A stretch of DNA of 64,000 nt from Desmonostoc vinosum HA7617-LM4 (lineage in GTDB: Bacteria; Cyanobacteriota; Cyanobacteriia; Cyanobacteriales; Nostocaceae), in the NCBI GenBank assembly GCA_019359515.1, contig JAHHHC010000004.1:151136-215135 (forward strand). The letters run 5' to 3'. Both the position numbers and the translations under genes were made by a program. The notes under the pieces are model-generated. The model searched no databases, had not been told where the DNA came from, and saw only the letters and a list, made by a program, of their open reading frames with translations. Positions 2,289 to 50,121 of the stretch are shown piece by piece. Every line of letters begins with the position of its first letter. The first letter of the stretch is position 1.

Positions 2289-2336
2289 GACGCGGGGACG
2301 CGGGGACGCAGGGACGCGGGGACGCGGGGACGCGGA
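2289..2336. repeat. Heptanucleotide tandem array (GACGCGG/GGGGACG)n, about 7 copies
   Basis: Direct reading: gacgcggggacgcggggacgcagggacgcggggacgcggggacgcgg. Confidence 0.9.
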
Positions 2337-2358
2337 GAATAATCAATAACAAATGACG

Positions 2359-2459
2359 TTAGCGTAGCGGTAGCGAGTCCGCGATAGCGTTAGTGAGGTA
2401 CGAGCGTCAGCGTAAAGCCTGCGGCATAGCTTCGCTTAGAGCGACACAGGAGCGTCGCG
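2359..2459. mobile_element. MITE-like short dispersed repeat (family B), long copy, flanked by aaatgac direct repeats
   Basis: A 51 bp core cagcgtaaagcctgcggcatagcttcgcttagagcgacacaggagcgtcgc is identical to 25694-25744. The element is flanked by caaatgacg...gtcatgacaaatgac. Confidence 0.6.
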
Positions 2460-2678
2460 TCATGACAAATGACAATTCCCTATTCCCTATTCCCCATTCC
2501 CATCTATAGAATATCTTTATTTGCTATTTCACTAAAAGTGGCAACTCAGGCTAAATCTCAATAGCCACTTGATTGATCAAAGGTAGGGTGAGTATTTTTA
2601 CCGTTTTTAAACATAGGTTAAGTGTTAAGTGTTAAGCGTTCCCTTTGAATATCATTCCTGAATAGAGAGAGAATCTAA

Positions 2679-4316
2679 ATGCTGAATTTGGTTTCTTCGG
2701 CTGACTGGGAGACTATGACAGTTCAACCAGTTAAGCAACACCGGATTATTGCTGCCATTGACTTAGGGACAAATTCACTACATATGGTGGTGGTGAAAAT
2801 TGACCCTGCTTTGCCAGCTTTTAGTATGATCGCCAGAGAGAAAGAAACTGTTAGGTTGGGCGATCGCAATCTGACTACTGGAGAGCTGAAACCCGAGATA
2901 ATTGAAAGGGCGATCGCTGCTCTAAGACGCTTTCAAGAAGTTGCCAAAACTCTTGATGCTGAAACAATTGTTGCTGTGGCAACTAGTGCTGTGCGAGAAG
3001 CACCTAATGGTAAAGATTTTTTACAAAAAGTAGAATCTGAGTTAGGTTTATGCGTTGACCTGATTTCTGGTCAAGAAGAAGCGCGACGTATCTATCTAGG
3101 CGTACTGTCGGGGATGGAATTTCACAACCAGCCTCACCTGATTGTTGATATTGGTGGTGGTTCTACAGAAATTATTTTGGGGGACAGTCATCAACCACGT
3201 AGTCTTACTAGTACTAAAGTTGGTGCAGTGCGACTTACTGGTGAGTTAATTAACACTGACCCCATTAGCAATTCCGAGTTTCAATACTTACAAGCCTATG
3301 CACGTGGAATGTTGGAACGTTCTGTAGACGAGGTGCTAGCAAATATTGAGTTTGGTGAATCTCCTCGGTTGGTGGGAACATCAGGCACTATCGAAACACT
3401 CGCGTTAATTCATGCGCGGGAAAAATCTGGTGCTGTTCCTTCAACTCTCAATGGCTACCAATTTAGTCTTAAAGACTTGCGAGAGTGGGTGAATCGTTTA
3501 CGAAAACTGAATAACTCTGAAAGGGCTGCGATACCGGGGATGCCTGAGAAGCGGTCTGAAGTTATACTAGCAGGAGCAGTAATATTACAGGAAACAATGA
3601 TTCTTTTAGGTGTAGATTCGGTCACTTTATGTGAACGCTCTCTGCGCGAAGGTGTAATTGTTGACTGGATGCTTACCCACGGTTTAATAGAAGATCGGCT
3701 GCGGTACCAGAGTTCGATTCGCCAACGGAGTGTGCTGAAACAGGCAAATAAGTACCACATTAACTTAGAGTATAGCGATCGCGTGGCAGTATTTGCTCTG
3801 AGTTTATTTGATCAAACTCAAGGTACATTACACCATTGGGGAGCAGACGAACGACAGATGTTATGGGCAGCTGCCATATTACACAATTGCGGGCACTACA
3901 TCAATCATTCAGCTCACCATAAGCACTCTTACTATTTAATTCGCAATGGGGAATTACTTGGTTATACCGAAACCGAAATAGAAGTGATTGCCAATTTAGC
4001 GCGATATCACCGCAAATCTCCGCCCAAGAAAAAGCACGAAAATTATAAAAACTTGTTGAGTAAAAAGCACCGACAAGTTGTTAGTCAATTGAGTGCAATT
4101 TTAAGATTAGCGGTTGCACTTGACCGTAGACAAATTGGTGCGATCGCAAGAGTGCAGTGTGATTATTATCAACAATTTCAGCAGTTTAATCTGCTAATTT
4201 ATCCATCTCAACCTGATGATGATTGTGCTTTAGAACTTTGGAGTTTAGATTATAAAAAAGGCATATTTGAAGCAGAATATGGAGTTAAGCTAGTAGCAAT
4301 TTTAGAAAAATCGTAA
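2679..4316 (+). CDS. ppx: Ppx/GppA-family exopolyphosphatase / guanosine pentaphosphate phosphohydrolase with C-terminal HD domain
   Basis: IAAIDLGTNSLHMVV matches the Ppx/GppA N-terminal ATPase-fold signature, with an HD-like C-terminus (HNCGHYINHSAHHKHS). The alternative start MTVQPV at 2715 is also plausible. Confidence 0.8.
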   Translation: MLNLVSSADWETMTVQPVKQHRIIAAIDLGTNSLHMVVVKIDPALPAFSMIAREKETVRLGDRNLTTGELKPEIIERAIAALRRFQEVAKTLDAETIVAVATSAVREAPNGKDFLQKVESELGLCVDLISGQEEARRIYLGVLSGMEFHNQPHLIVDIGGGSTEIILGDSHQPRSLTSTKVGAVRLTGELINTDPISNSEFQYLQAYARGMLERSVDEVLANIEFGESPRLVGTSGTIETLALIHAREKSGAVPSTLNGYQFSLKDLREWVNRLRKLNNSERAAIPGMPEKRSEVILAGAVILQETMILLGVDSVTLCERSLREGVIVDWMLTHGLIEDRLRYQSSIRQRSVLKQANKYHINLEYSDRVAVFALSLFDQTQGTLHHWGADERQMLWAAAILHNCGHYINHSAHHKHSYYLIRNGELLGYTETEIEVIANLARYHRKSPPKKKHENYKNLLSKKHRQVVSQLSAILRLAVALDRRQIGAIARVQCDYYQQFQQFNLLIYPSQPDDDCALELWSLDYKKGIFEAEYGVKLVAILEKS

Positions 4317-4337
4317 ATTGCAGGAAAAAGCTTGGTT

Positions 4338-4583
4338 TCAAGCAATATCCTCTAAATGAGGAACGTATTCATCCTCGTATTTTTCAATTAAAACACCAAT
4401 AACTTCCATCAGAGAAGCAAGCGGATGACTCTCATCTTCACCAACCTGATCAATGAGATAATCTAGCATCTCAACCAATCGCTCATATTCCTCCTCAGTA
4501 TGAGGAACAAAAACATTTTCAGCAATGGATGACCAAGCAACGATAGCTTTGTGAAGGTTAAAACTTTGCATTATTCCTTCCAC
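4338..4583 (-). CDS. higA: HigA-like antitoxin, N-terminal toxin-binding domain only (no HTH)
   Basis: EEEYERLVEMLDYLIDQVGEDESHPLASLMEVIGVLIEKYE aligns with the N-terminal 70 aa of E. coli HigA (EEQYTQALELVDHLL..NPLLDLV..I..WEE). The alternative start at 4571 overlaps the higB stop as TAATG. There is no room for an HTH domain before ppx. Confidence 0.55.
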   Translation of the reverse strand: MEGIMQSFNLHKAIVAWSSIAENVFVPHTEEEYERLVEMLDYLIDQVGEDESHPLASLMEVIGVLIEKYEDEYVPHLEDIA

Positions 4584-4858
4584 TTTCTTTCATCGTATTC
4601 TGAATGCGTTAACACAGATCGAATGTAAACCTTTTGGCGGTTGTAATGAATTGCAGCAATAAGTCTAATTTTGTTTCCACCAATGTTAAATACAGTCAAT
4701 TTACCAACCTGATCTGCTGATGGAAAAATTTCTCGCAGTTCAACAAATGAGGCAAACTCATTTCTTTTTACCAATTGATACCACTGAGCTAGAGCATTTT
4801 TCGTATCTGGATGAATTTTAGCAAATTCATTCAACCGTTTACGAGTAATAACGTGCAT
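4571..4858 (-). CDS. higB: HigB-family type II toxin (mRNA interferase)
   Basis: MHVITRKRL..HPD..FPSAD..VFNIGGNKIRL..YIRSVLTHSEYD aligns along its length with E. coli HigB (MHLITQKAL..VFNVGGNELRV..YIREVMTHKEYD). Confidence 0.8.
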   Translation of the reverse strand: MHVITRKRLNEFAKIHPDTKNALAQWYQLVKRNEFASFVELREIFPSADQVGKLTVFNIGGNKIRLIAAIHYNRQKVYIRSVLTHSEYDERKWKE

Positions 4859-5108
4859 TTTAAATCTGCAAATAAAATGTTAATTTTGCCATTTATTCAA
4901 ACTTTTTCCTAGATCTAGGCTCGTATTATAACTTTTATACTGTATGAAGTTCTATTAACTCTCCTGCTTCAATTAATATTCGAGAAAAACCAAGCACTGG
5001 TTGTGGAGATTCTTCTCATAGTATGCCTCCGTCCTTGCGGGGACATGCGGACGAGGGGAATGTAAATGAAAGTTTCTCAGCGTCCCCGCGTGTTCCCTAC
5101 TCCCCATT

Positions 5109-5783
5109 TCAACGAATTTGCTCTAAACTTCTATTGAGCCAATCTTCATACCAATTATAAAAACTCAAGGCTTTTTTATCATCACTAATTGGATGATACT
5201 CATCGGGATCGGCATTATGGAAATAATGACAGAAGTTTAAGGAAGCGGGATATATACCATTGTCATTAGTACGATCATCGATCCAGATATTTCCCTGCTG
5301 CTCTCCGGTGATAATTAATATTGCATAAATCCCACAACCATAATGAGCGATCGCTATACTACCTTGAATAAACTGCTCATTAAAATAGGCATCATTGTTA
5401 ACAGAAATATCTGCATCATCTTTAACTATTAAATCTAAATTATTCCAGGCCTCTGCAAAAGGAAATGGTTGGGAGAGAATTTTACAATTTTGTGGGTACG
5501 GTGTTACCAAAATTGTGTTTTCATATGTAATTCCAGGCATTCTGTATAAACCGTATCCTGGGCCGGCACCACCATTACCAATTTCTAATACAAAGTTGCG
5601 ATAATCACTGGGTAGCGTAATTTTGTATTTTGTTTCAAATATTTGAATATCTGTTTCACTTAAACAAGGATTAAGTTGATATTGGTGTGATTCTGAACCA
5701 AATACCTGAAATGTGGCGTCTAAAGTTGCCAGTTGAGTTAATTTATTTTTTAATTGCAAAACTTTATTCATTATGCGTTCCAA
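5109..5783 (-). CDS. SMI1/KNR4 (SUKH-1) family protein, polymorphic-toxin immunity type
   Basis: LPSDYRNFVLEIGNGGAGPGYGLY is the SUKH-1 signature. The gene sits immediately next to higBA with no adjacent toxin gene. Confidence 0.65.
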   Translation of the reverse strand: MERIMNKVLQLKNKLTQLATLDATFQVFGSESHQYQLNPCLSETDIQIFETKYKITLPSDYRNFVLEIGNGGAGPGYGLYRMPGITYENTILVTPYPQNCKILSQPFPFAEAWNNLDLIVKDDADISVNNDAYFNEQFIQGSIAIAHYGCGIYAILIITGEQQGNIWIDDRTNDNGIYPASLNFCHYFHNADPDEYHPISDDKKALSFYNWYEDWLNRSLEQIR

Positions 5784-5878
5784 ATTATGATTATGGCGCT
5801 GCCATATTTAGATATAGGTGGCTTTCTTTGTCGATGCTGATGCCAGAGGTAGTATTAAAGGAAGAAATAAATTAAGCT

Positions 5879-7345
5879 TTGCTCGTAATGACTCTGGCTG
5901 AAACTCCAAACAACAAGAATTCTAGCAATCCTTTTCTTACCCTCAACTACGAACCTGCCTTAGAATCTCTAGGCAATGACTACTATGACGAAGTTGTGGC
6001 GGCGGAATTTCCTCAACACATCTTACGTTGGCGCAACAATGCACTGTTACCTCGTTTGGGGTTAGATTCCCAAACAGTCACAGACGAAGATTTCATCACA
6101 GCCTTTGGCAAATTTCAAGAGCGCAAACCCTTATTAGCACTACGTTACCACGGCTATCAATTTGGTGAATATAATTCACGCTTGGGTGATGGTAGAGGCT
6201 TTCTCTACGGACAAGTACGCGCTGTTGATGGCGAACTATACGATTTTGGCACAAAAGGTTCTGGGAGAACGCCCTACTCTCGTGGTGGTGATGGAATGCT
6301 AACACTCAAGGGTGGGGTACGGGAAGTTCTGGCAGCGGAAGCATTACACTACTTGGGAGTACGCACTTCCCGCTGTCTCAGCATGATTGAAACAGGTTTA
6401 TCACTGTGGCGTGGAGATGAACCTTCACCAACCCGTTCATCTGTGATGATCAGAATGAGTATGTCACACATTCGCTTTGGTACTTTTGAGCGATTGCATT
6501 TTTTTCAGCGTCCAGATTTGACTAAAAAGCTGCTAGACCATGTAATTGAGCAATATTACCAAGATCTCAACACCGAAAAAGATAAGTATGCTCTGTTTTA
6601 TGCAGAATTAGTGAAACGAATTGCCAAATTAGTAGCACAATGGATGGCAGTTGGCTTTTGTCATGCGGTTCTTAATACCGACAATATGTCAATTACCGGA
6701 GAAAGCTTTGACTATGGCCCTTATGCGTTTATTCCTACTTATGACCCATATTTTATAGCTGCATATTTTGATTATTATGGACGCTATTGTTACAGTCAGC
6801 AACCAAGTATTTGTCAGTTAAATTTAGAAATGCTCCAGGAACCTTTGAAAGCGGTGATTGATAAAGGGGATTTGGAGGCAGGATTAGCTAGCTTTCATCA
6901 GGATTATCATGCTGAGTACAAGGCTTTGATGTTGAAAAAGTTAGGCTTTATAGAGTTGCAACATCCACAAGCTGATGAACTTTTGCATCTAACGATCGCA
7001 TTTTTGCAAGAAAGCCAAGTTGGCTATCATCAGTTCTTTTATGAAATGGCTCGTACCTTTTCATCTAAATGGCGGGATGAACCAGCTTTTGTCTTGAATA
7101 ATTCAGATGTTGTGCCAGCATTGGGCACATCAGCAATTTTTGATAATTGGTGTATACTTTACCATAAAATTTTGAATGATTTTGACCCAGAAAATATGAA
7201 TGCGATCGCTCAAACTTTGGCAGAGCAAAATCCTCAAACAGCATTGTTAAGACCTATTATAGAATCTGTTTGGGATGCGATCGCTCAAGAAGATAACTGG
7301 CAATCTTTTTATGATTTATTACAGCGAATTCAATCTAAACAGTAG
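5879..7345 (+). CDS. selO: Protein adenylyltransferase SelO (YdiU/UPF0061)
   Basis: The conserved blocks [39 protein letters not shown] and [20 protein letters not shown] are all present. Confidence 0.85.
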
Positions 7346-7874
7346 AGGTTGTTTTAAAACTTTTGAGCGAATATAATTCGCTACTATACAAGCAAAGTCC
7401 GCCTCTGCGAATTAACACAAAATCAAAACTATTAAACCCACGTTCACCCTTAGCGATTTCGTACTTCTTTAGGGAAGCAAGCTAGCAAGAGCATCTCCGA
7501 CAAAACAAGGGTAGATGGATTTTGTCTGTGTAGACGCGATTTCTAATCGTTGATACTAAAAAACACCGCAGCAAGCACAATTAAACCTAGAAGTGCTAAC
7601 GGAACCCAAAGATTGGGGAGATCTGACAAACTCATAAGTAATCCAAGATATTTCTTTAATACTTATTATGCTAAGGTTTGGGATAAAATTTAACGAGTTC
7701 CGTAGGTTTAAGTCCCCCAGTTCTATAATCAGCAAGTTTTGTGTTGGGGTTGTCTTACAAAGTTGAGGCAGTGTGATCTTGGGGAGCCACTGCGTTGGAC
7801 GGGTTTCCCGGATTAAAGCAAGTGGCGTGGTTTCCCCCATGAACAACTGCGCGTTAAATCCCTATTACAAAACT

Positions 7875-7917
7875 TAATTACGAATTACGAATTACGAATT
7901 ACGAATTACGAATTATT
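7875..7917. repeat. Heptanucleotide tandem array (AATTACG)n, 5-6 copies, overlapping the stop codon of the LptD-like gene
   Basis: Direct reading: ttaattacgaattacgaattacgaattacgaattacgaattattt. Confidence 0.9.
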
Positions 7918-10457
7918 TAATTATTTTGTCGCACGCCACCCACAACTGGCTTCACCTCATCATTAGAAAAGGGATCGGTGCCACCAGTCCAGTTAAAGTC
8001 ACTAATGCGGATGCTAAAGCCGCCTAATTGCAACACCGGGTTATAACGCAAAGTGATGCCATAGGTACGACGATTATATTCTAATATGTAATCTGTACTA
8101 CTTTCTTCTCCTGTATCTAAGTTAATTGTTGTTTGAAAGCCTAAGCGAAATGGGCCGTAAATTTGCTGTGATATTCCAGCACTTAACACTCTATTGTCAA
8201 CGGAGCGATCAAACAAAAATGGGGATAATCCACTGTTTATACCTTGAGAATAGCGGATATTAAAAGCGGTGTAGTCGAAAAAGGGACGAGAAAAATGACC
8301 AACCTGTCCTTCTAAGCCAATCGTACCAATCAGAGTAGTTTGATTATCACCGTTAGTGTAATAGCTAGTAGTACCTGTAACGCCAGCGATCGCTTGTAAA
8401 TAAGGCACTACTGGATTAGGTGTATACCGTAATCCTTGGGTTGGCGTAGGTGGCAATGGTTTCCCGCGCCATAGTACTATGCCTGTACTCAAGGCGGCAC
8501 TAGCTTGTAAGCGACCTAGCGAAATGCGATCATTATCCCGATTCGTTTCTAGCAAGTCTAGACGATCTGTGTTGGCATTGATATACTGAGCGCCTCCTTG
8601 ATAGCTAAGATTAATACCGCTTTTACCCAAAGGAATCACAGGAGATGTGATGACGCCGCCAAGACTGCTTTGGACGGTTTGAAAACCAAGTGTGCCATTG
8701 TAGAGACGATCGCGGTAGCTATATTCTAAATTCAATGTATGGGGATTGCGATCGCCTAATAACTGGCGTAATCGCAGACTTGCCCGCAAATTTTCTTCGA
8801 CTTTGTTTAAGTCTAAGCTAGTTAAATCACCAGAACCTTCAATTACAGCTTGTGGACTCAAAACAACGTTTAACTTTGATTTCACCGCAAATAACGCTGC
8901 TATGTCATTAGGGCCTTCTTGCACAGCTTTTTGAGCTAAAAATTGCGGCGTAATTGTCCAGCGTGCCTGTTCTGTATTAATCGGCACAAAACCGCGCTCC
9001 AGAAATAAACCACCCCGCTTATCTCCATCAAAGCCAGGAGAGACTATTGCCGGGGTAACTTCCTGCTCTCGACGATCAATAGTCTGCCCATCTACGGGGA
9101 TAGGTACGGAATATTTTTGGTCAAATACTAAACGTTGTTGCTGTGTATTAACACGGTCTACCAAGGGAGACTCCCGCGTGAGAGTAACTTTAGATGCACG
9201 CAACTCTAATTCTGGGGGTGAAAAAGGGTCATTGGTAATTCGCACATCTCTGGCTTGGAAACCTCGCGGATAGAAGTCAATTGTTTGGGCTTCAAATCGT
9301 AGGCGATTAACTTCACCTCCTGTACTTGGCGGTGGGACATTGCTACCCTCAGTTCGTCCCGAGGTGATATTCAGTCCTCCAGGACTGCCGACACCTGAAG
9401 TGGGTTGATTGGCCCTGATGCGATCGCTTAGCGGACGCTTGGGTACTCCACCTGCTGTCACATCAGTTGGCAAGAAAGCAAAATCCGTTTGAGCGGAGGG
9501 TACATAAATCTCTCCTCTACCATTTTGCAGTTCGCCAGTATCTTGGACAAAGTTATAAGTAAAACGTTGTCCCCGCAGTACCTGATCGCCCCTTGTTAAG
9601 GCGACGTTGCCTTCTCCCACAGCAATCAAATTATCCAAACTCACTTGTAGGCGATCGGCATCCACAACCGCCTCATCAAATCGCACCACTACATTGCCTT
9701 CAGCCGTAATAATTCGCCGTTGCTCATCATACTCTTGCTTATCTGAAGTCACTTCTACCACTCTAGGTCTGACTGGCGGCACATTTGTACTAGGTGGTTG
9801 ACTTTGTGGCTGTTTTGTGGGTTGAGATTGTAGTGTAGATGCAGGTAGTTGAGCTTGTTGAATATCTGACTCAAATTCTATCGTGATGGGTGTTGAAGGT
9901 TGATTTGTCGATTTGCGAGACTTGAATTCTATAGTATTTTTGATCGACTGAGAATTTGCTGCATTATCTAAAGCAGATTCAGAGAGATTGATTTTTCCTG
10001 GAGATTGTTGTGCAGGATTATGACTTTGCTTTCTTTGTTGAGTTAATTTATTGGCTAATACTTGCGCCGCAGAGGCTGTCACCTCTTGCATAGGATTACC
10101 AATTGTCAGCGGTTCGCCCAATAATACAGCACTCCCAGAAGCAGTAAGGGGTGAAAATTCTGGTGATGTTTCTGAGGTACTTGGTAAAGATGGGGTTTCA
10201 GCAACTAATTGAGTTGTGTTGATAGGAGTTGATAGATGCCGATAATTCCCATTGTCGGTCGCACTTGCTAACTGAGGTAGATATTTTTGCTGCTGGGGTT
10301 TTTCTTGGCTTTTTGGCGTTTTAGTTTCAATAGTTGAATGGAAGTTGAATTTACCAGCAGATGCGATGGGATTTGCGGGTTGGGCAGGTTTAACGATAGA
10401 AGGAAAAGCAGGCGGCGGAACAGGATGAAGCATATCAGAGAAAAATCGAGCTAACAA
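7917..10457 (-). CDS. lptD: LptD/OstA-family outer-membrane protein with long Pro/Gln/Ser/Thr-rich N-terminal region
   Basis: The central block AEGNVVVRFDEAVVDADRLQVSLDNLIAVGEGNVALTRGDQVLRGQRFTYNF resembles the OstA N-terminal domain. The C-terminal ~450 aa is rich in alternating beta-strand-like segments. The N-terminal 250 aa is low complexity. Confidence 0.55.
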   Translation of the reverse strand: MLARFFSDMLHPVPPPAFPSIVKPAQPANPIASAGKFNFHSTIETKTPKSQEKPQQQKYLPQLASATDNGNYRHLSTPINTTQLVAETPSLPSTSETSPEFSPLTASGSAVLLGEPLTIGNPMQEVTASAAQVLANKLTQQRKQSHNPAQQSPGKINLSESALDNAANSQSIKNTIEFKSRKSTNQPSTPITIEFESDIQQAQLPASTLQSQPTKQPQSQPPSTNVPPVRPRVVEVTSDKQEYDEQRRIITAEGNVVVRFDEAVVDADRLQVSLDNLIAVGEGNVALTRGDQVLRGQRFTYNFVQDTGELQNGRGEIYVPSAQTDFAFLPTDVTAGGVPKRPLSDRIRANQPTSGVGSPGGLNITSGRTEGSNVPPPSTGGEVNRLRFEAQTIDFYPRGFQARDVRITNDPFSPPELELRASKVTLTRESPLVDRVNTQQQRLVFDQKYSVPIPVDGQTIDRREQEVTPAIVSPGFDGDKRGGLFLERGFVPINTEQARWTITPQFLAQKAVQEGPNDIAALFAVKSKLNVVLSPQAVIEGSGDLTSLDLNKVEENLRASLRLRQLLGDRNPHTLNLEYSYRDRLYNGTLGFQTVQSSLGGVITSPVIPLGKSGINLSYQGGAQYINANTDRLDLLETNRDNDRISLGRLQASAALSTGIVLWRGKPLPPTPTQGLRYTPNPVVPYLQAIAGVTGTTSYYTNGDNQTTLIGTIGLEGQVGHFSRPFFDYTAFNIRYSQGINSGLSPFLFDRSVDNRVLSAGISQQIYGPFRLGFQTTINLDTGEESSTDYILEYNRRTYGITLRYNPVLQLGGFSIRISDFNWTGGTDPFSNDEVKPVVGGVRQNN

Positions 10458-10709
10458 ACAGCCAAATGGCAGCCGGAAGGATCAATTCTACATTTTGCCT
10501 TCCGACTTTTGCCTTCTGCCTACTTGCAGCAAGCTATCCGGAGTAGGACACTAGACTTTTTGGAGAAGCTTGGTAAGGGAGAAGCAAAGGATAATTCTTC
10601 TCCTTTGCCTTCAATCTTTTTCTCAACTCATGTAAGTTTGTACATAAGTTTTGCTTAGTGTTTATGGCGTCTATTTTTTCCGCCTTCCGGTAGTTGCGGA
10701 TTAGTCGCC

Positions 10710-10826
10710 TTACTCCGAATCCCGACGACCGGGGTTACGAGCTGGGTCATTCGACAAAAATCCGAAGATAAAGATAGTCACGAAGAAGGCAACAACAATA
10801 TAAACAGCAATTTTTAATGTCACCAT
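10710..10826 (-). CDS. psbI: Photosystem II reaction-centre protein I (38 aa), absent from the ORF track because it is under 60 aa
   Basis: Translation is [38 protein letters not shown] against the PsbI consensus METLKITVYIVVTFFV..FGFLSGDPARNP.R.D.E. A GGAG motif lies about 10 nt upstream of the ATG. Confidence 0.85.
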
Positions 10827-39910: not shown

Positions 39911-40351
39911 ATGAAACCCATATTTTTAACAGCAGCAGCTTTATTTAGTACACTGTGTTTAACAATTCCTAATCCTGTCAGAGCAGAAAATAACGCCGCT
40001 GTTAGGCGCTTGCTTGAAACTAGAGAATGTTTTGGATGTAATTTAACAGGCGCTAACCTCAAAGGCGCTCATCTCATAGGTGCTGATTTAAGAAACGCAA
40101 ATTTAAAAGGCGCAAATTTAGAAGGTGCAAATCTAGAAGGTGCCGATTTAACGGGTGCAAATTTGAAATCAGCCAATCTCACAAAAGCTTTTGTCAGTGG
40201 TACTAGCTTAAATAATGCTAATCTTACCAATGTTAATTTGAGTGATGCTCAATTACATAACAGCGATGTTAATGGTGCTGTCTTAGCTAATATCAACTTG
40301 AGCGGTGCAGACGTATTTAATACAGCGATTAGTGTTGGTGGTGAATATTAA
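39911..40351 (+). CDS. Secreted pentapeptide-repeat protein
   Basis: Signal peptide followed by about 20 tandem A(N/D)L..-type pentapeptides (ANLKGAHLIGADLRNANLKGANLEGANLEGADLTGANL..). Confidence 0.85.
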   Translation: MKPIFLTAAALFSTLCLTIPNPVRAENNAAVRRLLETRECFGCNLTGANLKGAHLIGADLRNANLKGANLEGANLEGADLTGANLKSANLTKAFVSGTSLNNANLTNVNLSDAQLHNSDVNGAVLANINLSGADVFNTAISVGGEY

Positions 40352-40580: not shown

Positions 40581-41933
40581 TTACTCGCCAGTAATCGACA
40601 GTTCATTAATCCAAACTCGAGGACAAACGCCTCCAGGAGTCAACTCTACCTCTTTCTCAAGATAAATAATCGATTTCAAAAGTTCTAAGAAATCACCAGC
40701 AACAGTAGCTGATTCAATGCTCGTCCTGACACCTTTGTTGACTATCCAGCCGTCAAAAGGTAAAGAAAACGAGCCTTGTAAAGATTTAACTCCTGCATGG
40801 AGAGCATGTAAATCATCGATCAAAATCACATTTTCAGCAGTTTCCAAACTAAATTCTTGCTCAGGAACTGCTGCCGCAAAAATGTGATAAAAATTAGGGC
40901 TAATGTTAACTTTTGCACCAATACTTGCATTACCTGTTGGTTTAGCATTCATCCTCTTAGCAGTGCCTGCACTGTGGAGAAAGCTAGTTAAAACACCATT
41001 TTCAATTAGCAAAACCTGACGAGTAGGAGTTCCTTCACCATCAAAAGATTCTGCGCCAATGTTAGCTGGGTGCAGTGCATCATCATAAACTGAGAGCAGA
41101 GGCGAGGCAATTTGCTTACCTAGATCATCAGGAGTAGATAAACTCTGCTTATCTAGAATATTTTGAGCGTTGAATAAATTAGAAAAAGCACCCAACAAAC
41201 TTAAAAAAGCTTCAGGAGAAAAAACAACTCGATATTTATTAGTTTTGACTTTTTCGTAGTTCAAATGACTAATAGTTTTTTCTGCTGTTTCTTTGATACA
41301 ACCATCAATGTCTAGCTTATCTAAACTCTGGTTGACTCTATAAGCGCCTGCACTGCGAGGTTTTTTGCCTTCCTCTTCAGTTTTGCTGTAAAGATAAACC
41401 GATGCCAAAGAGTGAGATTCTTTCCTGACTGCACCATCGCTATTAAGATAGAATCTGTCAACATCTCTCTGTGCTAATCCGTTGTAAGGCACTCCTTTAA
41501 TCGCTGGATGAGCTGTTAGTAATTCTTTTTCTGCTACTAACAATTTGTCTATCAATTCAGAAACAGGTGCGTGAAGTGCTTTCTCTTGAGGATGATCTGG
41601 AATGGGAATAGTAGCTTCTGGACTAAAGTCAGGGACGTTTTCTTTAACGCCAAAGAAGCTTGCTTCATAGGCAGTTTTGAGAGCTAATTCTAGTCCCTTG
41701 GGATCAACATCAGTAGTGCTGGTGACACCCATCGTATTATCTTCATTCCAAACACGAACGGTAACACCAGAGCGATTTGAAGCTTTGACTTGTTTTGGCT
41801 CACCTTGATCTACCTGTACACTAGTTTCGTCTACTGTTGAGCCGTAAATATCAAATTTCTTAATGCCTAACTTCTGGGCATTATCCTTGGCGTGATTTGC
41901 AATCTCGTTGATATTCGCCATATTCAAGTCCAA
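40581..41933 (-). CDS. pmbA: PmbA/TldE-family metalloprotease-associated protein
   Basis: TldD/PmbA fold; partner of the adjacent TldD. Probable start at MANINEI (41921). Confidence 0.75.
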   Translation of the reverse strand: MDLNMANINEIANHAKDNAQKLGIKKFDIYGSTVDETSVQVDQGEPKQVKASNRSGVTVRVWNEDNTMGVTSTTDVDPKGLELALKTAYEASFFGVKENVPDFSPEATIPIPDHPQEKALHAPVSELIDKLLVAEKELLTAHPAIKGVPYNGLAQRDVDRFYLNSDGAVRKESHSLASVYLYSKTEEEGKKPRSAGAYRVNQSLDKLDIDGCIKETAEKTISHLNYEKVKTNKYRVVFSPEAFLSLLGAFSNLFNAQNILDKQSLSTPDDLGKQIASPLLSVYDDALHPANIGAESFDGEGTPTRQVLLIENGVLTSFLHSAGTAKRMNAKPTGNASIGAKVNISPNFYHIFAAAVPEQEFSLETAENVILIDDLHALHAGVKSLQGSFSLPFDGWIVNKGVRTSIESATVAGDFLELLKSIIYLEKEVELTPGGVCPRVWINELSITGE

Positions 41934-42020: not shown

Positions 42021-43493
42021 TTAGCGTCCACCTACTGTTATGGAATCAACCTTAATATGAGGTTGTCCAACTGTGGTGTAAATACTGCCGCTGATAGAGC
42101 CACAAAAACCTGGAGCAATTTCCAAATCTTGAGAACACATGGAAATTTTGTTCATAATTTCTTTGGCTTCACCGATGAGGATAGCTCCCTTGAGGGGTTT
42201 GGTAATTTTGCCATTTTCTATCAAGTAAGCTTCATCGACACTAAAGTTAAATTGGCCTGTAGCACCGACGCTACCGCCACCCATTTTTTTACAGTAGACA
42301 CCTTTATCTATAGAGGCAAACAAATCCTCATTGGTATATTCGCCAGTGGCAATGTAAGTATTACGCATCCGGCTAGCTGCGGCAAAGGTATAATTTTGGC
42401 GGCGTCCGCTACCAGTTCTGGGGTGTCCGGTGCGCCAAGAACCAGCTCTATCTGCTAAGAAGTTTTTGAGGACGCCTTTTTCAATTAGTAGTGTTCTTTG
42501 AGCTGGCATACCTTCGTCATCCATATCAATTGTGCCAAAGGCATTGTCAGCACGCCCTTCATCCCAAGCTGTGAGGCTTTGGTGAGCAATTTTTTCGCCT
42601 TTTTTGTCAGCAAAGGGAGAGGTATTGCGTTCAATTTGAGTGGTTTCTAGCAAGTGTCCACAGGCTTCGTGGAAAATCACACCACCAAAGTGATTAGCCA
42701 TGATGATGGGGTACGTACCTGATTCTACGTAATCTGCATAGAGCATTTTCCCGGCGGATTCTGCTATTTGTTCAGCAGCTTGTTGATAATCCCAGGTTCT
42801 GAGGAAGTTGGCATCGCTAGTATTACCAGCACGTTCACCGATAGAGGCACGATTAGCACCATCAGCGCACAAAAGGTTAAATCCTACAGATTGGGTGAGG
42901 CGAATGTCACGAGCAAAAGTGCCATCACTGGCAGCGATTAAGACTTCTTGCCAATCGCGAAAATAGGTAGCGCGACGCGATTGTACATGGCTAGCTTTTC
43001 GCTGGAGTTGAGCTGTGCCATCTAAAAGGACTTCTCCCATTTCGCGCATGGAACTACATAAAGCTAACCACCCATCTTTGCCTCTTTTAGTGGCGTAGTC
43101 TCTCAATAGCTCTAGGTTGATTTCTGGGATGAAAGCATTAGCAACTGGTAATTGTAACCCTAAAATAGATAGACCTTTTTCTAGGGCTGCTTTTAACCCG
43201 GAAAATGAAAGGTCATTAGTGCTGACGTAGCAGTCGGCTTTGCCTCGAAATACTCTAACTCCAGCACCTGTAGCCAGACTTGGCGAAATACTGGTGATGG
43301 CGTCGTCTTCTGCCAAGCAACTGATATAGTTGCGACGTTCTAAGAAGAATTCGATAAAGTCAGCCCCAGCGGCGCGTCCTAGTCCCAGGAGGGTAGCCAG
43401 GGGGGCTTGCCAGGTTTCATCGAACCGCTCTGGCGTGGAAGAATATTGCAGGGTGGGAAGTTGATTTGAAAGAATTAGCGTACTTGTAAGCAT
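42021..43493 (-). CDS. tldD: TldD-family zinc metalloprotease
   Basis: Carries HEACGHLLE (HExxxH) and a conserved GxC...glycine-rich C-terminus. Confidence 0.85.
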
Positions 43494-43818
43494 GGGTAGC
43501 CTCGTCTGCTGGCGTAATCAGAGATTTGACTGAAAAATCCTGGTGTGTTTAGTCTAACAAATCAGTGAAAGCCGCAGTCGGCAGTCGGGCGGTAGAGGTT
43601 CCCCTACTTTGGAAGCTTACTCTCTATCCTTTAATGCCAATGAAAAGGAAATATTGTAAAGTTCTACCCCTTTTGACAGCCATCACCAGCTCATCATGAT
43701 GCAGGAGTCAAAGATAAAATACAGTTTCCTAAACTTTATTTTGCGACAATAAGGGTAAAAGTTCTATGCATTGTCAATACCCACAAGCGCCGTTTTGCCT
43801 CAATAAGGAATATAACAA

Positions 43819-44853
43819 ATGAGTTCGTATGCTTTTTGGAACAACAAAGGTGGCGTGGGAAAGAGCTTTCTTTGCTTTGTGGCTGCTGCTGAATATGCTC
43901 ACCGTCACCCCGATACAGATGTTTATGTAATTGACCTTTGTCCCCAAGCGAACGTCTCAGAAACCCTACTAGGAGGATATCTCAATAGTCCAAAGGCACT
44001 ACATTCTTTGAGCAGTAAGATACCACGCTCGACAGTGGCTGGCTACCTAGAAGCGCGTCTTAACTCTCCCTTCCAAATGATTACCGATGTATCTCCTTAT
44101 ATTTGTAATATAAGTGAATTCAATCCACAAATACCAGAAAATCTGAGGCTCGTGTGTGGGGACAATCTTCTCGAAATCATTTCTGAAGCAATTAGGCAAA
44201 CTTCTCAACTTCAAATACCAATTGATGCTTGGAAACAGGTGCTTAGTTGGATTCGAGATTTAACAGTTGCTCTGCGTAAATATAGTGGTGAGCGAGATGC
44301 CTTGTTTTTAATTGATTGTAACCCTAGTTTCGCTGTATACACACAGCTTGGTCTGGTTGCCGCAGAGGGCGTAGTTGTCCCATTCACTGCGGATGATAGT
44401 TCGCGTCGTGCGATTGAGAATGTAGTTGCACTTTTATATGGCATAACTGATCCTAATACTGCACCATATGCAAGAATTAGCTTTGCAAAACGTGCAAAAG
44501 AAGAAGGAGTATCTGTGCCAAAATTACATACCTTTGTGAGTAATCGAGTAACGATGTATGAAGGTAAAGCTGCCTCTGCATTTATAGCTGTGAACAAAAT
44601 CATTAAAAAGACGATGGATGATATACATCAGAAAAATCGTCATATTTTTGCTAATCCTAAAGACTTACCGAGCAAAAGTTTCATTGAAATTCCCGATTAT
44701 CACAGTGCATGTGTAGTTGCAGCGACAACTGGCACACCTTTGCATAGGCTTAAACCAGGACCAAAAAAAATTGGTGAGGAGCGGGTGCAATTAAATCCAG
44801 AACCATTACAGAGATATCGAGATGCGCTTGAAGAATTTGTGAATTGTCTCTAA
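43819..44853 (+). CDS. ParA/MinD-family P-loop ATPase, unusually long (344 aa), first gene of a two-gene module
   Basis: Deviant Walker A WNNKGGVGKS at residues 7-16, and Walker B-like FLIDCNPS. A 10 bp gap separates it from the downstream HEPN gene. Confidence 0.7.
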   Translation: MSSYAFWNNKGGVGKSFLCFVAAAEYAHRHPDTDVYVIDLCPQANVSETLLGGYLNSPKALHSLSSKIPRSTVAGYLEARLNSPFQMITDVSPYICNISEFNPQIPENLRLVCGDNLLEIISEAIRQTSQLQIPIDAWKQVLSWIRDLTVALRKYSGERDALFLIDCNPSFAVYTQLGLVAAEGVVVPFTADDSSRRAIENVVALLYGITDPNTAPYARISFAKRAKEEGVSVPKLHTFVSNRVTMYEGKAASAFIAVNKIIKKTMDDIHQKNRHIFANPKDLPSKSFIEIPDYHSACVVAATTGTPLHRLKPGPKKIGEERVQLNPEPLQRYRDALEEFVNCL

Positions 44854-44863
44854 GAGCATCATC

Positions 44864-45466
44864 GTGCCATCACCAGCAGCATTAAAATACGACATTGCGG
44901 CTCAAAAGGCTCGTATACTACGTGAAACTGCGACAGATCCTCGCTTACGCCCAATATTAAGCAGTCAAACTCAAGTTTATTACCATTCTGCTTTAGCGAT
45001 GTTTGTCGCTGGATGGGAGGCTTATATTGAAGAACTTGTTCGCAACTTTTTTGATGTCACTGCAAACCCCTTAGATCCTCAGTTTCATGCTGTACATTCT
45101 ATTGCTAAAAATGCGGCAGAGCGATCGCTCAAACAATTTAATACGCCAAATTCAGATAATTCACGTAACCTTTTGGTTCAATATACTGGCTATGACCCCA
45201 TCAATGATTGGGTTTGGTCAAAAAGAAGCATGAACGCCCTAGCTACTCGACAGATGCTCAACGATGTTCTGCAAGTCAGGCATAGTTTTGCTCATGGCTT
45301 TCCCATACCTGCATTTTCTTGGACACAAACACCGACTGGGAAAGTTCGGCTAACTGCTAAAGCTATTAAGGATGTTGATAAGTTACTACAATATCTTGTA
45401 ACTGCTACTGATCTTGGCATGAAACGAAATATTCAAATCATTTATGGGATTGTTGCTCCCTGGTAA
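44864..45466 (+). CDS. HEPN-like nuclease domain protein (Rx4H motif), second gene of the module
   Basis: QVRHSFAHGFP contains the R-x4-H HEPN catalytic signature near the C-terminus, in a predicted all-alpha protein. Confidence 0.55.
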   Translation: MPSPAALKYDIAAQKARILRETATDPRLRPILSSQTQVYYHSALAMFVAGWEAYIEELVRNFFDVTANPLDPQFHAVHSIAKNAAERSLKQFNTPNSDNSRNLLVQYTGYDPINDWVWSKRSMNALATRQMLNDVLQVRHSFAHGFPIPAFSWTQTPTGKVRLTAKAIKDVDKLLQYLVTATDLGMKRNIQIIYGIVAPW

Positions 45467-45635
45467 TAAGTATCATGATCTTTAGTAAACCAGATTTTGT
45501 CCAAAAATGTTGATTTTTCAGATTCATGAAATCAGATCCCTAGCCGCGATCGCAACCCTAACAACTTTCATCAGTTAAACTTTATAAATCGAGATGTCAA
45601 ACAAAAGAATTTCATCAGACAAAAGCAACATAATA

Positions 45636-46175
45636 TCAAAGTTTACGTTTCTTAACGGCTTGGGCTGGATTTCCAGCGTAAATCATCATCGGCTCTAAAG
45701 AGCGTCCAGTTACTCCACCCAAAGTTAGCACTGCGCCACGACCAATAATCACTCCAGGGCCAATTACACACTTGGCTGCAATCCAACTACTTTCTTGAAT
45801 GTGGATAGGGGCAGTCATTAATTTAAAATCGGGATGATTCCAGTCATGATTGCCGGTGCAGAGATAGACGCCTTGAGATAGGCAAACATGACTTTCGATG
45901 GTGACAGGAGCTAGGTTATCTATCCAGGTGTCTTCTCCTATCCAAACAAAATCACCAATGATTAATCGCCAAGGAAACTTGACGCGCACCCCGGGTTTGA
46001 TGCGGACTTTTTGACCGATTTGTGCCCCAAAGGAACGGAGTATCCAAACTTTGAAAGCTGATGTGGGAAGCCAACGGTTTTCTACTAAAGGTGATCCCAA
46101 GAAATACCACAGCAGTTGTTTCCAGTAGGATGCACCAGGATGATATGTACCAAGAGTGTAACTGTCTAAACGCAT
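45636..46175 (-). CDS. WcaF-like hexapeptide-repeat polysaccharide O-acetyltransferase
   Basis: Left-handed beta-helix hexapeptides (IGQKVRIKPGVRVKF.., IIGRGAVLTLGGVTG). Start taken at MRLDSYTLG; the ORF-track start overlaps ydcF. Confidence 0.65.
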   Translation of the reverse strand: MRLDSYTLGTYHPGASYWKQLLWYFLGSPLVENRWLPTSAFKVWILRSFGAQIGQKVRIKPGVRVKFPWRLIIGDFVWIGEDTWIDNLAPVTIESHVCLSQGVYLCTGNHDWNHPDFKLMTAPIHIQESSWIAAKCVIGPGVIIGRGAVLTLGGVTGRSLEPMMIYAGNPAQAVKKRKL

Positions 46176-46762
46176 ATTTGTAGTAAATTGATTGCTGGGT
46201 GAAGACTGGCCCCTGTACGACCTGTGAGAATCCAAAGCAGACAACGACCAACATCACGCAGAATGGGCAGGATTGGTTCTTTGGGTTTGTCTGATTGCAC
46301 AGATAATGGTGTGAAAGCGATACCCCGACTACCAAGAATGAGGGTAGCGATCGCCTTGGCTCTGGGCATATGAGAAGCTGAAGTAATTAAATAGAGATGC
46401 TGAAAGTTTCTGTGTTTAAAATCTGAAACGAGGGTGGTAAAATTTGTGACTGTATCAACAGCACGGTAGTCGAGGTGCAGACGACTGTCTGGGATGCCGG
46501 CGGCTCGAAAAATCTCATATGCCATACTAGGGGGCGAACCAGAAGAAACCCATATTTCTAGGGATGGGTACCAGCGAGCGAGTTCCGCTGTATACTCTTC
46601 CCTATCTATCCATGCACCAAGGGTAAGAATAGCTTGGGGTTGAGGAGCCTGGTGAAAAGCGATCGCTAAACGCACTGGAATGATCAGCAGCAATGTTACA
46701 ATCAACGCTGTTAAAGCCCAAATCCAATATTTCTTGAGTTGCCTAAAATACCATTTAATCAA
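46166..46762 (-). CDS. YdcF/DUF218 (ElyC/SanA) family protein
   Basis: N-terminal TM followed by a DUF218-like domain (ILTLGAW..YLITSASHMPRA). Confidence 0.55.
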   Translation of the reverse strand: MIKWYFRQLKKYWIWALTALIVTLLLIIPVRLAIAFHQAPQPQAILTLGAWIDREEYTAELARWYPSLEIWVSSGSPPSMAYEIFRAAGIPDSRLHLDYRAVDTVTNFTTLVSDFKHRNFQHLYLITSASHMPRAKAIATLILGSRGIAFTPLSVQSDKPKEPILPILRDVGRCLLWILTGRTGASLHPAINLLQICV

Positions 46763-46787: not shown

Positions 46788-47750
46788 TTAGATACTGTCT
46801 GGTTGACCCATCAATTGTAAAAGAGATGTTTTTCGGATATCGTGCTGCATTCCATAGTCAGTTGTGCCAAATTCTACTTGTAACATTAGGCGGTCTTTGT
46901 TAACTGGAGTTGTACCTTTATGGAAACAAAAAGTATCTTCAGCGAAACCAAAGCCTGCTTGACCGCAAATCGATATTAAAGAGTCACGACCATAAGAGTT
47001 GAAAATTTCTGCATCTGTTTCTCGCTTTGGTAGTAATAAATGCGAGAGCTTCTTGTGCTTATGACTACCACGAATACAAACATGAGGCCCATTAAATTCA
47101 TCAACATCTGTTAAGTAAAAGAAAAACTTTAAAAATCGGTAATCATCTATATCATAATGAAACATTTGGAATGATTGTCTTCTTTCTTTATCTGTTATGT
47201 CTCCTGTAAAACTCCACCAGAGAAGATTTCCTTGATGCACAGGTTTATGCTCTAAATACTTGGCAGCTATTGCTAGTAATTTAGGGTCATTTTGTAATTT
47301 ATTAATGGCTGTGCAAAGCGAACTTGTATTAAAATAACCAGCTAAAGCTAATTTCTGATTGTAATAGCTTTCTGCTAATTGCTTTTGATGATAATAAAAT
47401 CCTAATTTAGGTTGGCGATAGCCATAACATGGTTGAGAATAAGCGAACCAAACAATTTCTTTGACTATTTCTTCGGTTAGATTAATACCTAAATATAAAC
47501 CTTCTTTTTTCAGGCTGGTAACGACGCTATCTACGTTAATATCTGGAAATAAAGTGTTGCTTTCACTTACTACAGATAACTCAGATACCTTAGTTGAAAT
47601 CTTTGACAAAAATTCTATCAAAGCTCGCCCTACATTGAATCTTGCTAGGTTTCGCATTAAAAGCCATCGGGGATTTTTAGTTAACCCGACATAATTTTCA
47701 TAGCAAATGTCATATAGCAGCAAATAAATGTTGTGGAATTGGTTGACCAT
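46788..47750 (-). CDS. Putative Fe(II)/2-oxoglutarate-dependent oxygenase (PhyH-like double-stranded beta-helix)
   Basis: HYDIDD (HxD) ... GPHVCIRGSH arrangement typical of PhyH-like oxygenases. Confidence 0.4.
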   Translation of the reverse strand: MVNQFHNIYLLLYDICYENYVGLTKNPRWLLMRNLARFNVGRALIEFLSKISTKVSELSVVSESNTLFPDINVDSVVTSLKKEGLYLGINLTEEIVKEIVWFAYSQPCYGYRQPKLGFYYHQKQLAESYYNQKLALAGYFNTSSLCTAINKLQNDPKLLAIAAKYLEHKPVHQGNLLWWSFTGDITDKERRQSFQMFHYDIDDYRFLKFFFYLTDVDEFNGPHVCIRGSHKHKKLSHLLLPKRETDAEIFNSYGRDSLISICGQAGFGFAEDTFCFHKGTTPVNKDRLMLQVEFGTTDYGMQHDIRKTSLLQLMGQPDSI

Positions 47751-48930: not shown

Positions 48931-50121
48931 TTAGGAAATTTTTTGTTGATGATTGTCCAGAATAGATTGATATATTAAAACTAATTTTGCAGATATATTT
49001 TCCCAACTATAGTTGTTTGTTACGAATTGATTAGCGCGATCGCCCATTTCTTTAGCTTGTTGAGGATTTTTTAAGTACTCATCCAAAGCATTAGTAATTT
49101 CTAATACATCTAATTTGGGAACGTAACCTAGTTGGTGTTGTTTGACAACAGAAGCTAGGGCTACACCGGGAGTCACAAGCACAGGCAGACCTACAGACAA
49201 AGCTTCTAGGACTGCGACGGCAAAGTTTTCGGAGTGAGAAGTCAGCACAAACAGGTCTGAACCTTGGATTAATGTATCTTTGGTTTCTCCTTCGACAAAT
49301 CCGACAATGTGGGTGCGATCGCGCATTCCTGTAGAGATGAGCAAAGATTCTACTTCAGCTTCGTAGTCTGGAGTTCCACTACCTGCCAAAATGAAACTGA
49401 AACGGTGATGGGTCAGTTTGCTCAAAGCTGGGATGAGGTAGTCTAAGCCTTTTTTATGATGTAAGCGAGACAAGAATAAAATGACTGGTTCATCTTGAGG
49501 AATATTTAAGCGTTGCCGTAAAAGATCGCGAGCATTGACAACTTGATTTGGCCAAGACAATCCCAAAGGTAATATAAAATTAGGCGTGCGTAGTCCCAGG
49601 CGAGAAACTTCTTTTTGTTCTTGTTCAGCAGTAAAGTGAATAGCTTGACTAGAGTTGAGGTTCGTTCGCTCAATTAATTTGAGATAATTTTGCTTTTTAC
49701 GGGTGCTTTGCTGCAAAGACCACTCGCATAACAAACCATGTGGAGTCACGATGTAAGGAATTTGTTTCCAACGGGCGATCGCCATGGCGATCGTCGATGG
49801 GTAGGAGAAGAGGGCGTGAACATGTACCAAATCATATCGAGAAATATTCTGCCAGAGCCATTTTGTCAGTTGCCCCGAAAAAGCGTATTCTCTGACGGCT
49901 TTGACATTTGGTGAAAAGCGTTGGAAAAACCAAACTGGAACTTGCTCATACTCAATGAGCTGTTGTAAAGGCACATCTAATAAGCTATCTCCATTGTCGT
50001 TAGTCGTAGCAATTTCGGCATCGATATTCTCGGTTCTTAATGCCTTGACCATATCTAAAACAGCCTGACTTGTACCACCCCGTACTTTAGGTACAGATGG
50101 AATTACATGGAGAATTTTCAT
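48931..50121 (-). CDS. Glycosyltransferase family 4 (GT-B)
   Basis: The C-terminal EGFGIPVLEALSVGLPVLVT-like block (SENFAVAVLEALSVGLPVLVT) is the GT4 E-x7-E region. Confidence 0.75.
   Translation of the reverse strand: MKILHVIPSVPKVRGGTSQAVLDMVKALRTENIDAEIATTNDNGDSLLDVPLQQLIEYEQVPVWFFQRFSPNVKAVREYAFSGQLTKWLWQNISRYDLVHVHALFSYPSTIAMAIARWKQIPYIVTPHGLLCEWSLQQSTRKKQNYLKLIERTNLNSSQAIHFTAEQEQKEVSRLGLRTPNFILPLGLSWPNQVVNARDLLRQRLNIPQDEPVILFLSRLHHKKGLDYLIPALSKLTHHRFSFILAGSGTPDYEAEVESLLISTGMRDRTHIVGFVEGETKDTLIQGSDLFVLTSHSENFAVAVLEALSVGLPVLVTPGVALASVVKQHQLGYVPKLDVLEITNALDEYLKNPQQAKEMGDRANQFVTNNYSWENISAKLVLIYQSILDNHQQKIS

Follow-up and report, generated by a model that had tools for sequence, protein, structure and literature searches.

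A dyad of a ParA/Soj ATPase gene and a HEPN gene has been predicted to be a toxin-antitoxin system, with the HEPN protein as RNase toxin and the ATPase as antitoxin, acting either through a nucleotide-dependent conformational change or through phosphorylation (Anantharaman, Makarova, Burroughs, Koonin, Aravind 2013, Biol Direct 8:15; PMC3710099). This statement concerned the MAE_18760 family, and the RiboL-PSP family was tabled in the same work as 'operon with ParB' (PMC3710099). Here we describe a pair of this architecture in a stretch of 64,000 nucleotides (nt) from the cyanobacterium Desmonostoc vinosum HA7617-LM4 (contig JAHHHC010000004.1, positions 151,136 to 215,135 of the forward strand), hereafter called the window. 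The pair is obligate, co-diverging and mobile, with both catalytic motifs intact; its architecture is that of the already published prediction, so that it belongs to a known, predicted kind of system and not to a new one. Its features, in window positions, are as follows.

43819..44853, + strand: ATPase gene, an open reading frame (ORF) of 344 amino acids (aa) with ATG start and TAA stop; proposed regulator or antitoxin
43846..43866, + strand: deviant Walker A motif K10-G-G-V-G-K15-S16 (residues 10-16) with signature lysine K10, read from the sequence
43933..43935, + strand: Asp39 of Walker A' (DLCPQ motif), invariant in the alignment, pairing with DLDPQ of Thermus Soj
44314..44316, + strand: Asp166 of Walker B (IDCNPS motif), invariant in the alignment, pairing with LLDAPPS of Soj
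44854..44863, + strand: intergenic spacer of 10 nt, with a purine-rich Shine-Dalgarno-like stretch that overlaps the stop codon (TAAGAG)
44864..45466, + strand: HEPN gene, 200 aa, GTG start, a standalone RiboL-PSP-HEPN; proposed RNase effector or toxin
45278..45295, + strand: Rx4H motif R139-H-S-F-A-H144, the HEPN RNase catalytic motif, from the homologue alignment
43494..43818, + strand: upstream intergenic region, divergent from tldD, with one promoter-like site at 43673-43700
43805..45479, + strand: limits of the transferable cassette, the sole segment in common with Richelia sinica L012 (blastn of the window against L012)

To compare the locus with its relatives, we used 80 loci from at least 7 phyla, collected by a pattern scan with one genome per species. 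They include Nostocales, Oscillatoriales and other cyanobacteria, many Poribacteria, Caldilineaceae, Thiomargarita and Thiotrichaceae, as well as Binatia, Entotheonella, Geobacter, Parvibaculum, Pelagibius and Frankia. Relative to the dyad of 2013 the architecture is the same, a ParA/Soj-like SIMIBI ATPase gene accompanied by a standalone HEPN gene with an Rx4-6H motif, and the dyad is likewise conserved: at 77 of the 80 loci the two genes share a strand and are separated, in most cases, by about 10 nt. The difference is one of family, as by Pfam thresholds the window HEPN protein falls in PF18735 and not in the MAE_18760 family (PF18737).

PrrC and RloC are ABC-ATPase-HEPN fusions. They carry an ABC/Rad50-type domain fused N-terminally to HEPN, unlike the pair, whose ATPase is of the ParA type (SIMIBI) and is encoded by a separate gene. 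Both are latent HEPN RNases regulated by an NTPase; PrrC lies in a restriction-modification (R-M) operon and serves as a second line of defence, and RloC-like genes are found together with those for R-M and Fic/DOC (PMC3710099). Relatives of the window pair are similarly placed, between the Type III Res and Mod genes in Poribacteria and beside Fic/DOC at two loci, whereas in the window itself the R-M linkage of PrrC is absent. PrrC and RloC are the characterised counterparts, in function, of the pair. An earlier, sequence-only reading of this DNA held that a P-loop ATPase dedicated to a HEPN RNase is not known among the standard named defence architectures; that suggestion of novelty falls, given these two systems and the ParA/Soj-HEPN dyad predicted in 2013.

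The standard two-gene HEPN toxin-antitoxin system is HepT-MntA (type VII), in which a minimal nucleotidyltransferase AMPylates the Tyr of an RX4HXY motif. Here, by contrast, the partner is an AAA_31/ParA-like ATPase with no NTP_transf hit, and the Rx4H motif is followed by F, Y or S, with no conservation at this position. A parallel on the ATPase side is ParA-Shi of the element ICEclc, where ParA and a small HicA-like protein arrest growth only if the ATPase motifs of ParA are intact (PMC6812849). There too a ParA-family ATPase is encoded beside a small protein of RNase-toxin fold on a mobile element, and the two proteins interact; unlike the pair, however, Shi is an 85-aa HicA-like protein, parB is the next gene, and ParA acts as co-effector and not as antitoxin (PMC6812849). 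On the nuclease side, binding of a P-loop kinase activates the HEPN nuclease in Las1-Grc3, an obligate complex of a HEPN endoribonuclease and a P-loop NTPase in which the NTPase reaches into the HEPN active centre and regulates it (PMC10942766). Las1-Grc3 differs in being an essential eukaryotic housekeeping machine for ITS2 (internal transcribed spacer 2) and in its NTPase, Grc3 being a polynucleotide kinase rather than a ParA with a deviant Walker A motif, and it has no sequence relationship to the pair beyond the superfamily level.

The two genes and their products

Each of the two ORFs has many strong homologues (for the HEPN protein 241 at E<=1e-3, the best at 6e-120 and the full-length ones nearly all of about 200 aa; for the ATPase more than 5000, the best at 5e-218 and the top 120 all at least 68% identical), and both are therefore real genes and not chance reading frames. 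The layout given by the sequence-only reading, a 344-aa ATPase with a KGGVGKS Walker A motif and, 10 nt on, a 200-aa HEPN gene, is borne out by the ORFs and their sequence. The ATPase begins with MSSYAFWNNKGGVGKS (window ORF 43819-44853), and from its TAA stop to the GTG start of the HEPN gene there are exactly 10 nt, GAGCATCATC, through which the two genes are likely to be translationally coupled. The GTG start is supported by the conservation of the N-terminus MPSPAAL (xPSPAA) in homologues, S3 and A6 being invariant. Upstream, the site at 43673-43700 reads TTGACA-16-CATGAT and agrees with the consensus at 10/12 positions; as a promoter it is putative only, given that a scan of the pair's region for promoters and terminators returned no more sites than shuffled sequence did. 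An Rfam scan of window positions 43000-46000 gave no match above chance.

The downstream protein was assigned to the HEPN superfamily by its motif in the sequence-only reading, and both profile search and fold comparison confirm this. PF18735 (HEPN_RiboL-PSP) matches residues 33-178 with 44.0 bits (gathering cut-off 28.4; E 3e-11) and is present in all 120 HEPN homologues listed, while PF18737 (MAE_28990/MAE_18760-like) reaches 12.5 bits against a cut-off of 26.8. The two are neighbouring families, since one family member (P0083) carries hits to both. The AlphaFold2 model (predicted local distance difference test, pLDDT, 91; predicted template modelling score, pTM, 0.87) is all-helical, and its comparison with known structures identifies the all-alpha HEPN helical bundle, with HepT-MntA as the closest fold match; a sequence search of PDB with the HEPN profile yielded noise only. 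The Rx4H motif, previously described as C-terminal, is indeed present (residues 138-145 read VRHSFAHG), and it sits about 70% along the protein; between it and the extreme C-terminus there are still a loop and a last helix. Across 21 homologues, down to 49% identity, R139, H140, S141, A143, H144 and G145 are invariant, as are H41, T94, P95, R101 and several Trp, and a Ralstonia homologue with a HEPN protein only 30% identical keeps the motif as VRHAFAHG. HEPN RNases build their active site from two protomers and leave 2',3'-cyclic-phosphate and 5'-OH ends (PMC3710099); by analogy, we propose that the window protein is a metal-independent endoribonuclease with a dimeric, composite active site. 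The family is small, with only 483 clusters (50% identity) out of 1.84 billion representatives, nearly all of them standalone proteins of about 200 aa. One metagenomic protein of 514 aa (P0309) joins the N-terminal half (residues 1-114) of the HEPN family to an MmeI target recognition domain and C-terminal domains, and resembles the scar of a rearrangement within an R-M locus.

The upstream protein matches Pfam AAA_31 (4e-11) and CbiA, and PHROG 164, 'ParA-like partition protein', at 1e-31. Its AlphaFold2 model (pLDDT 87) can be overlaid on Soj, McdA, ParA and the pSM19035 delta protein, and a Foldseek search of PDB with this model returned HpSoj, McdA, Soj and ParA (E 6e-11 to 1e-9, probability 1.0) with template modelling scores (TM-scores) of 0.72-0.77, normalised to target. 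ParA ATPases dimerise on ATP. In 23 homologues K10, G11, G12, V13, G14, K15, D39 and D166 are invariant and S16 is kept in at least 90%; the invariance of K10, K15, D39 and D166 makes the protein look like an active ATPase of the ATP-sandwich-dimer type. Identity across phyla amounts to 60-70%. The sequence-only reading had made it about 100 aa longer than partition ParAs, which is roughly right for the Soj/McdA type (252-264 aa), exceeded by about 80-90 aa, and wrong for type Ia ParAs of about 390-400 aa (3ez2, 7npe), than which it is shorter. Short in-frame duplications of LPSNSFIE before the conserved IEIPDYH strand (P0123 and P0127; alignment columns 327-350) account for cyanobacterial ATPase variants of 352 and 354 aa.

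The same reading had held that this is not an ordinary ParA with a ParB encoded nearby, and on this point it was correct. The NCBIfam model ParA_partition gives 29.9 bits, far under its cut-off of 180, and across the 80 loci no ParB or centromere-binding partner gene conserved beside the ATPase was found, so that the pair departs from ParABS on both counts.

Pairing of the two genes across lineages

The ATPase gene lies immediately upstream of the HEPN gene on the same strand at 77/80 loci, and the co-inheritance that the sequence-only reading had put forward as a check was also seen in every further pair inspected. The three exceptions are L071, at a contig end, and two Nostoc metagenome-assembled genomes (MAGs), L051 and L060, with a deletion. 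The distance from stop to start is about 9-12 nt in nearly all full-length loci, and at L069, L078 and L079 the genes overlap or abut; among 73 loci, the HEPN start codon is GTG in 60, ATG in 12 and TTG in 1. Clustering of the flanking ORFs over the 80 loci revealed no third gene common to the lineages, the ATPase and HEPN clusters being the only ones shared.

The association holds in the reverse direction, since searching from the ATPase side placed a 200-aa PF18735 gene directly downstream in 5/5 look-ups (Methylocystis, Stenotrophomonas maltophilia, Burkholderia pseudomallei, Comamonas terrigena and one further lineage). A full pair is found on a Ralstonia megaplasmid (ATPase 50% and HEPN 30% identical to the window proteins), and the pairing is also present in three proviral contigs of IMG/VR. 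Other plasmids hold distant relatives only, the matches in Rhodococcus and Streptomyces being partial and limited to HEPN, and a tblastn search of 50,697 phage genomes with the HEPN protein gave no match. Pairwise distances of the ATPases and of the HEPN proteins are correlated (r = 0.80; Mantel test, 0/999 permutations).

Genomic contexts

The flanking genes of the pair differ in almost every lineage; at Richelia sinica L012 they differ from those of the window outside 43805-45479. At about 20 Poribacteria loci, the pair sits between a Type III restriction endonuclease and a Type III methyltransferase, in the order Type III endonuclease, ATPase, HEPN, a small ORF or an Mrr-like gene (Mrr_cat), Type III methyltransferase, DUF4325 (STAS-like), and PD-T4-4/PDC-M47 A and B. 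Such defence islands, with res and mod split by the cassette, extend over L081 5783-15662 and L033 2917-10554, and include L084; the ATPase plus nuclease defence pairs that adjoin the cassette in Poribacteria also include AriA-like hits. Elsewhere, the pair adjoins Fic/DOC in Thiomargarita and Geobacter (L037, L069) and a protein with TIR, NB-ARC and TPR domains in Frankia (L079), and a Type ISP R-M gene is near it in a Thiotrichaceae MAG (L075).

Mobile elements form a second group of contexts. The Methylocystis pair lies within an integrative element with Prim-Pol, AlpA, resolvase and IS66 genes, and that of Comamonas within an element with a serine recombinase, a D5-type primase and an integrase. 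The B. pseudomallei and S. maltophilia pairs are in islands with the insertion sequence (IS) IS3, PAAR toxins, and McrB_N/NOV_C or HNH genes, and in Ralstonia an IS630-like transposase adjoins the pair. In one proviral contig of IMG/VR the pair abuts an integrase; in another it stands between an integrase and a CI-like repressor. Taken together, the pair's link to defence genes and mobile elements is genuine in many lineages and absent in the window; it is a qualitative association.

In a further arrangement, one that lacks conflict or mobile-element genes, seen at eight loci of Microcoleus, Stenomitos and Chroococcales (L015, L018, L020-L024 and L031), the pair is inserted between two large same-strand genes resembling nonribosomal peptide synthetases (NRPS), with AMP-binding, methyltransferase and PP-binding domains. 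At L018 the first NRPS-like gene occupies 53-4921, the pair 4957-6603 and the second NRPS-like gene 6696-10826, leaving gaps of 35 and 92 nt. This arrangement spans two ATPase subgroups, about 84% and about 74% identical to the window ATPase, and at these loci the pair may stabilise a transferable biosynthetic cluster.

Two further neighbourhoods were observed. In the B. pseudomallei island (L096/L097, 5509-7478) NTP_transf_8 and HTH_Crp_2 genes, encoded on the opposite strand, adjoin the pair on its upstream side, and may be another toxin-antitoxin-like module. At L088/L089 (9645-12718), DUF8575 and TROVE (Ro60-like) genes lie downstream of the pair on the opposite strand, an RNA-quality-control context.

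Decayed copies

A census of decayed copies showed the HEPN gene alone disrupted at L028, L044 and L041, and both genes lost or degraded at L032, L051 and L060; no locus in the census had lost the ATPase and kept an intact HEPN gene. In L051 and L060 a single deletion corresponds to window positions 43622-45117, and removes the intergenic region, the entire ATPase gene and HEPN codons 1-84. As a sign that the ATPase restrains the HEPN protein, this asymmetry is weak.

Function of the pair

Interpretation of the pair as a conflict module is reasonable and well supported by comparative genomics. Within it we tentatively favour, as a distinctly possible account, a self-contained and horizontally mobile toxin-regulator or abortive-defence cassette in which the ATPase restrains the HEPN RNase. 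This design is preferred because of the order of regulator then effector, the conserved 10-nt spacer with its purine-rich segment, the GTG start in 60/73 loci and the decay census. The two genes would be co-transcribed and translationally coupled, the weak GTG start of the HEPN gene leaving the ATPase in excess. The upstream gene would supply a catalytically competent ParA-type ATPase of the ATP-sandwich-dimer type that holds the RNase in check, and the downstream gene a metal-independent HEPN endoribonuclease as the growth-arresting effector. In its ATP-bound form the ATPase would bind the HEPN protein and block two protomers from assembling the composite Rx4H active site; less likely, it might modify the HEPN protein in the manner of type VII antitoxins. 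Were this restraint to fail, on a trigger from a phage or plasmid, on neutralisation of a linked R-M system, on a disturbance of ATP or of the nucleoid, or on loss of the cassette, the free HEPN protein would cleave cellular RNA and growth would stop, the outcome being abortive defence, stabilisation of the carrying island, or both. In this scheme the physical contact between the proteins, the toxic effect, the way in which regulation runs, its trigger and the RNA that is attacked are what we infer, and the defence role of the cassette is likewise a prediction from comparative genomics.

Several observations weigh against this account. Our literature searches found no experimental study of a ParA plus HEPN pair, and PADLOC-DB v2, which includes the HEPN systems PD-T4-2, PD-T4-5, PD-T7-3 and ApeA, holds no model for either protein: run on the window pair, PADLOC gave zero hits for the ATPase and only a spurious DruK hit (E 0.025) for the HEPN protein, and the Poribacteria orthologues had no match. 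The 150 top-ranking representatives include no ATPase-HEPN fusion, which would prove a physical link. Divergence is faster in the HEPN protein than in the ATPase, by about 1.3x, the opposite of classical type II antitoxins; the greater conservation of the ATPase suits a regulator that is enzymatic or under multiple constraints, and not a simple type II antitoxin. The asymmetry in the decay census is a small count, 3 against 0, with P ~0.05 under length-proportional disruption, and some of the frameshifts may be MAG assembly errors. The pair has a GC content of 41%, equal to that of the window, and so bears no compositional sign of recent transfer. Finally, the location in defence islands, found in many lineages, does not extend to the window and its Nostoc relatives, whose flanks are ordinary TldD/PmbA and glycan genes, and at several single loci the pair stands beside radical-SAM, GMP synthase, PAS or HlyD genes.

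The strongest rival keeps the conflict module and reverses its logic, the ATPase being a sensor or activator, or an obligate co-effector, of a HEPN protein that is inactive alone; ATP-driven dimerisation of the ATPase, possibly on DNA, would unite two HEPN protomers and switch the RNase on during infection. A strongly conserved, catalytically intact ATPase does resemble a sensor or engine more than a disposable antitoxin, P-loop partners of this sort have precedents in ICEclc ParA-Shi (PMC6812849) and Las1-Grc3 (PMC10942766), and many ATPase plus nuclease defence pairs (PD-T4-4; AriA-like hits) adjoin it in Poribacteria. If the HEPN protein were harmless alone, however, loss of the ATPase only would be expected at least as often as loss of the HEPN gene only, the ATPase gene being 1.7x longer, and it was seen 0 times against 3; the gene order and weak GTG start, moreover, resemble antitoxin-toxin operons. 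Both of these objections are weak, and we consider the activator scheme rather unlikely.

A role in housekeeping is improbable. Here the pair would be a nuclease and NTPase for RNA processing or quality control, like Las1-Grc3, acting on a specific cellular RNA with no part in conflict. The ATPase identity of 60-70% between phyla, the chromosomal, compositionally native copies beside housekeeping genes in Nostoc and others, and the one locus beside a TROVE/Ro-like gene are all in keeping with it. Against this, the family is patchy and rare (the 483 clusters given above), its flanks vary in almost every lineage, close relatives carry deleted or frameshifted copies, and the pair resides on prophages, integrative elements and IS-flanked islands, which are features of accessory genes.

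The weakest rival, a partition or positioning system in which the ATPase segregates an element or cargo and the 200-aa protein is a ParB-, McdB- or MinE-type adaptor of HEPN-derived fold, can draw on the genuine ParA fold and motifs, on the fact that ParA ATPases always act with a small partner encoded downstream, on copies beside replication genes of integrative elements (Prim-Pol at L086, D5-type primase at L098) and on the conserved extreme N-terminus (xPSPAA) of the partner, but is most improbable, as an adaptor would not need the invariant Rx4H and other polar residues that are kept down to 30% identity, most copies are chromosomal without replicon or centromere-like repeats, the pair is inserted within R-M and NRPS operons, and the ParA_partition score is far below its cut-off.

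Returning to an ATPase that restrains the HEPN RNase, a more specific form of this idea can be put forward. Elsewhere, ParA-type ATPases are known to position DNA and cargo on the nucleoid. Here one may have been recruited as an ATP-sensing, perhaps DNA-sensing, gatekeeper of a HEPN RNase ('ParA-gated HEPN'), with ATP-sandwich dimerisation controlling the HEPN active-site dimer and the system firing on perturbation of the nucleoid or ATP pool, or when an anti-restriction protein neutralises a linked Type III R-M system. In this full form the proposal is doubtful, and we advance it as a speculation. If the reading of a restraining ATPase is right, the pair is one of few HEPN toxin modules regulated by a ParA-type ATPase, and its mechanism would join two well-studied switches that work by dimerisation, the ATP sandwich of ParA and the composite active site of HEPN; 'ParA-gated HEPN', if true, would be a class of toxin-antitoxin or abortive-defence system that is new and amenable to experiment. 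In Poribacteria, where the cassette separates the Type III genes res and mod, it would then form a second PrrC-like RNase back-up that is coupled to R-M. The cassette measures 1.65 kb, is exceptionally conserved and occurs in the tractable bacteria Burkholderia pseudomallei, Stenotrophomonas maltophilia, Comamonas, Variovorax and Ralstonia; as such organisms can be cultured, the prediction of 2013 could be put to a direct test. Beyond that prediction, our analysis shows that the pairing is near-absolute across phyla, that the pair occurs in Type III R-M and prophage contexts, that its decay is asymmetric and that orthologous pairs exist in tractable bacteria.

Neighbouring genes in the window

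The pair is the sole + strand unit of its neighbourhood. On its upstream side are tldD and pmbA, and convergent with it lie a hexapeptide acetyltransferase gene, a DUF218 gene, a gene of unknown function, and GT2 and GT4 glycosyltransferase genes. The coordinates of the nearest are given below.

40581-41933, - strand: pmbA, on the upstream side of the pair
42021-43493, - strand: tldD, divergent from the pair
45636-46244, - strand: hexapeptide acetyltransferase ORF, called from the first TTG and overlapping the DUF218 ORF by 79 nt
46166-46762, - strand: DUF218 ORF, overlapping the acetyltransferase ORF

The real start of the acetyltransferase is probably further downstream than the first TTG. 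We considered the glycan island as a part of the module and rejected it, since in other genomes none of the downstream genes is retained beside the pair. The unrelated gammaproteobacterial locus L042 likewise has a DUF218 gene at the flank of the pair, and L075 has glycosyltransferases there; the recurrence of these flanks is probably a coincidence.

Within the glycan cluster, a 320-aa ORF (46788-47750, - strand) has no Pfam match at E<=0.001. The GT4 gene (48931-50121, - strand) passes, besides GT1/GT4, the Pfam model PF20706 'GT4-conflict' with 38 bits against a cut-off of 26, and the downstream glycan island is therefore perhaps not purely housekeeping. On the other side, just upstream of pmbA, a 146-aa pentapeptide-repeat protein with a signal-like N-terminus is encoded at 39911-40351 (+ strand).

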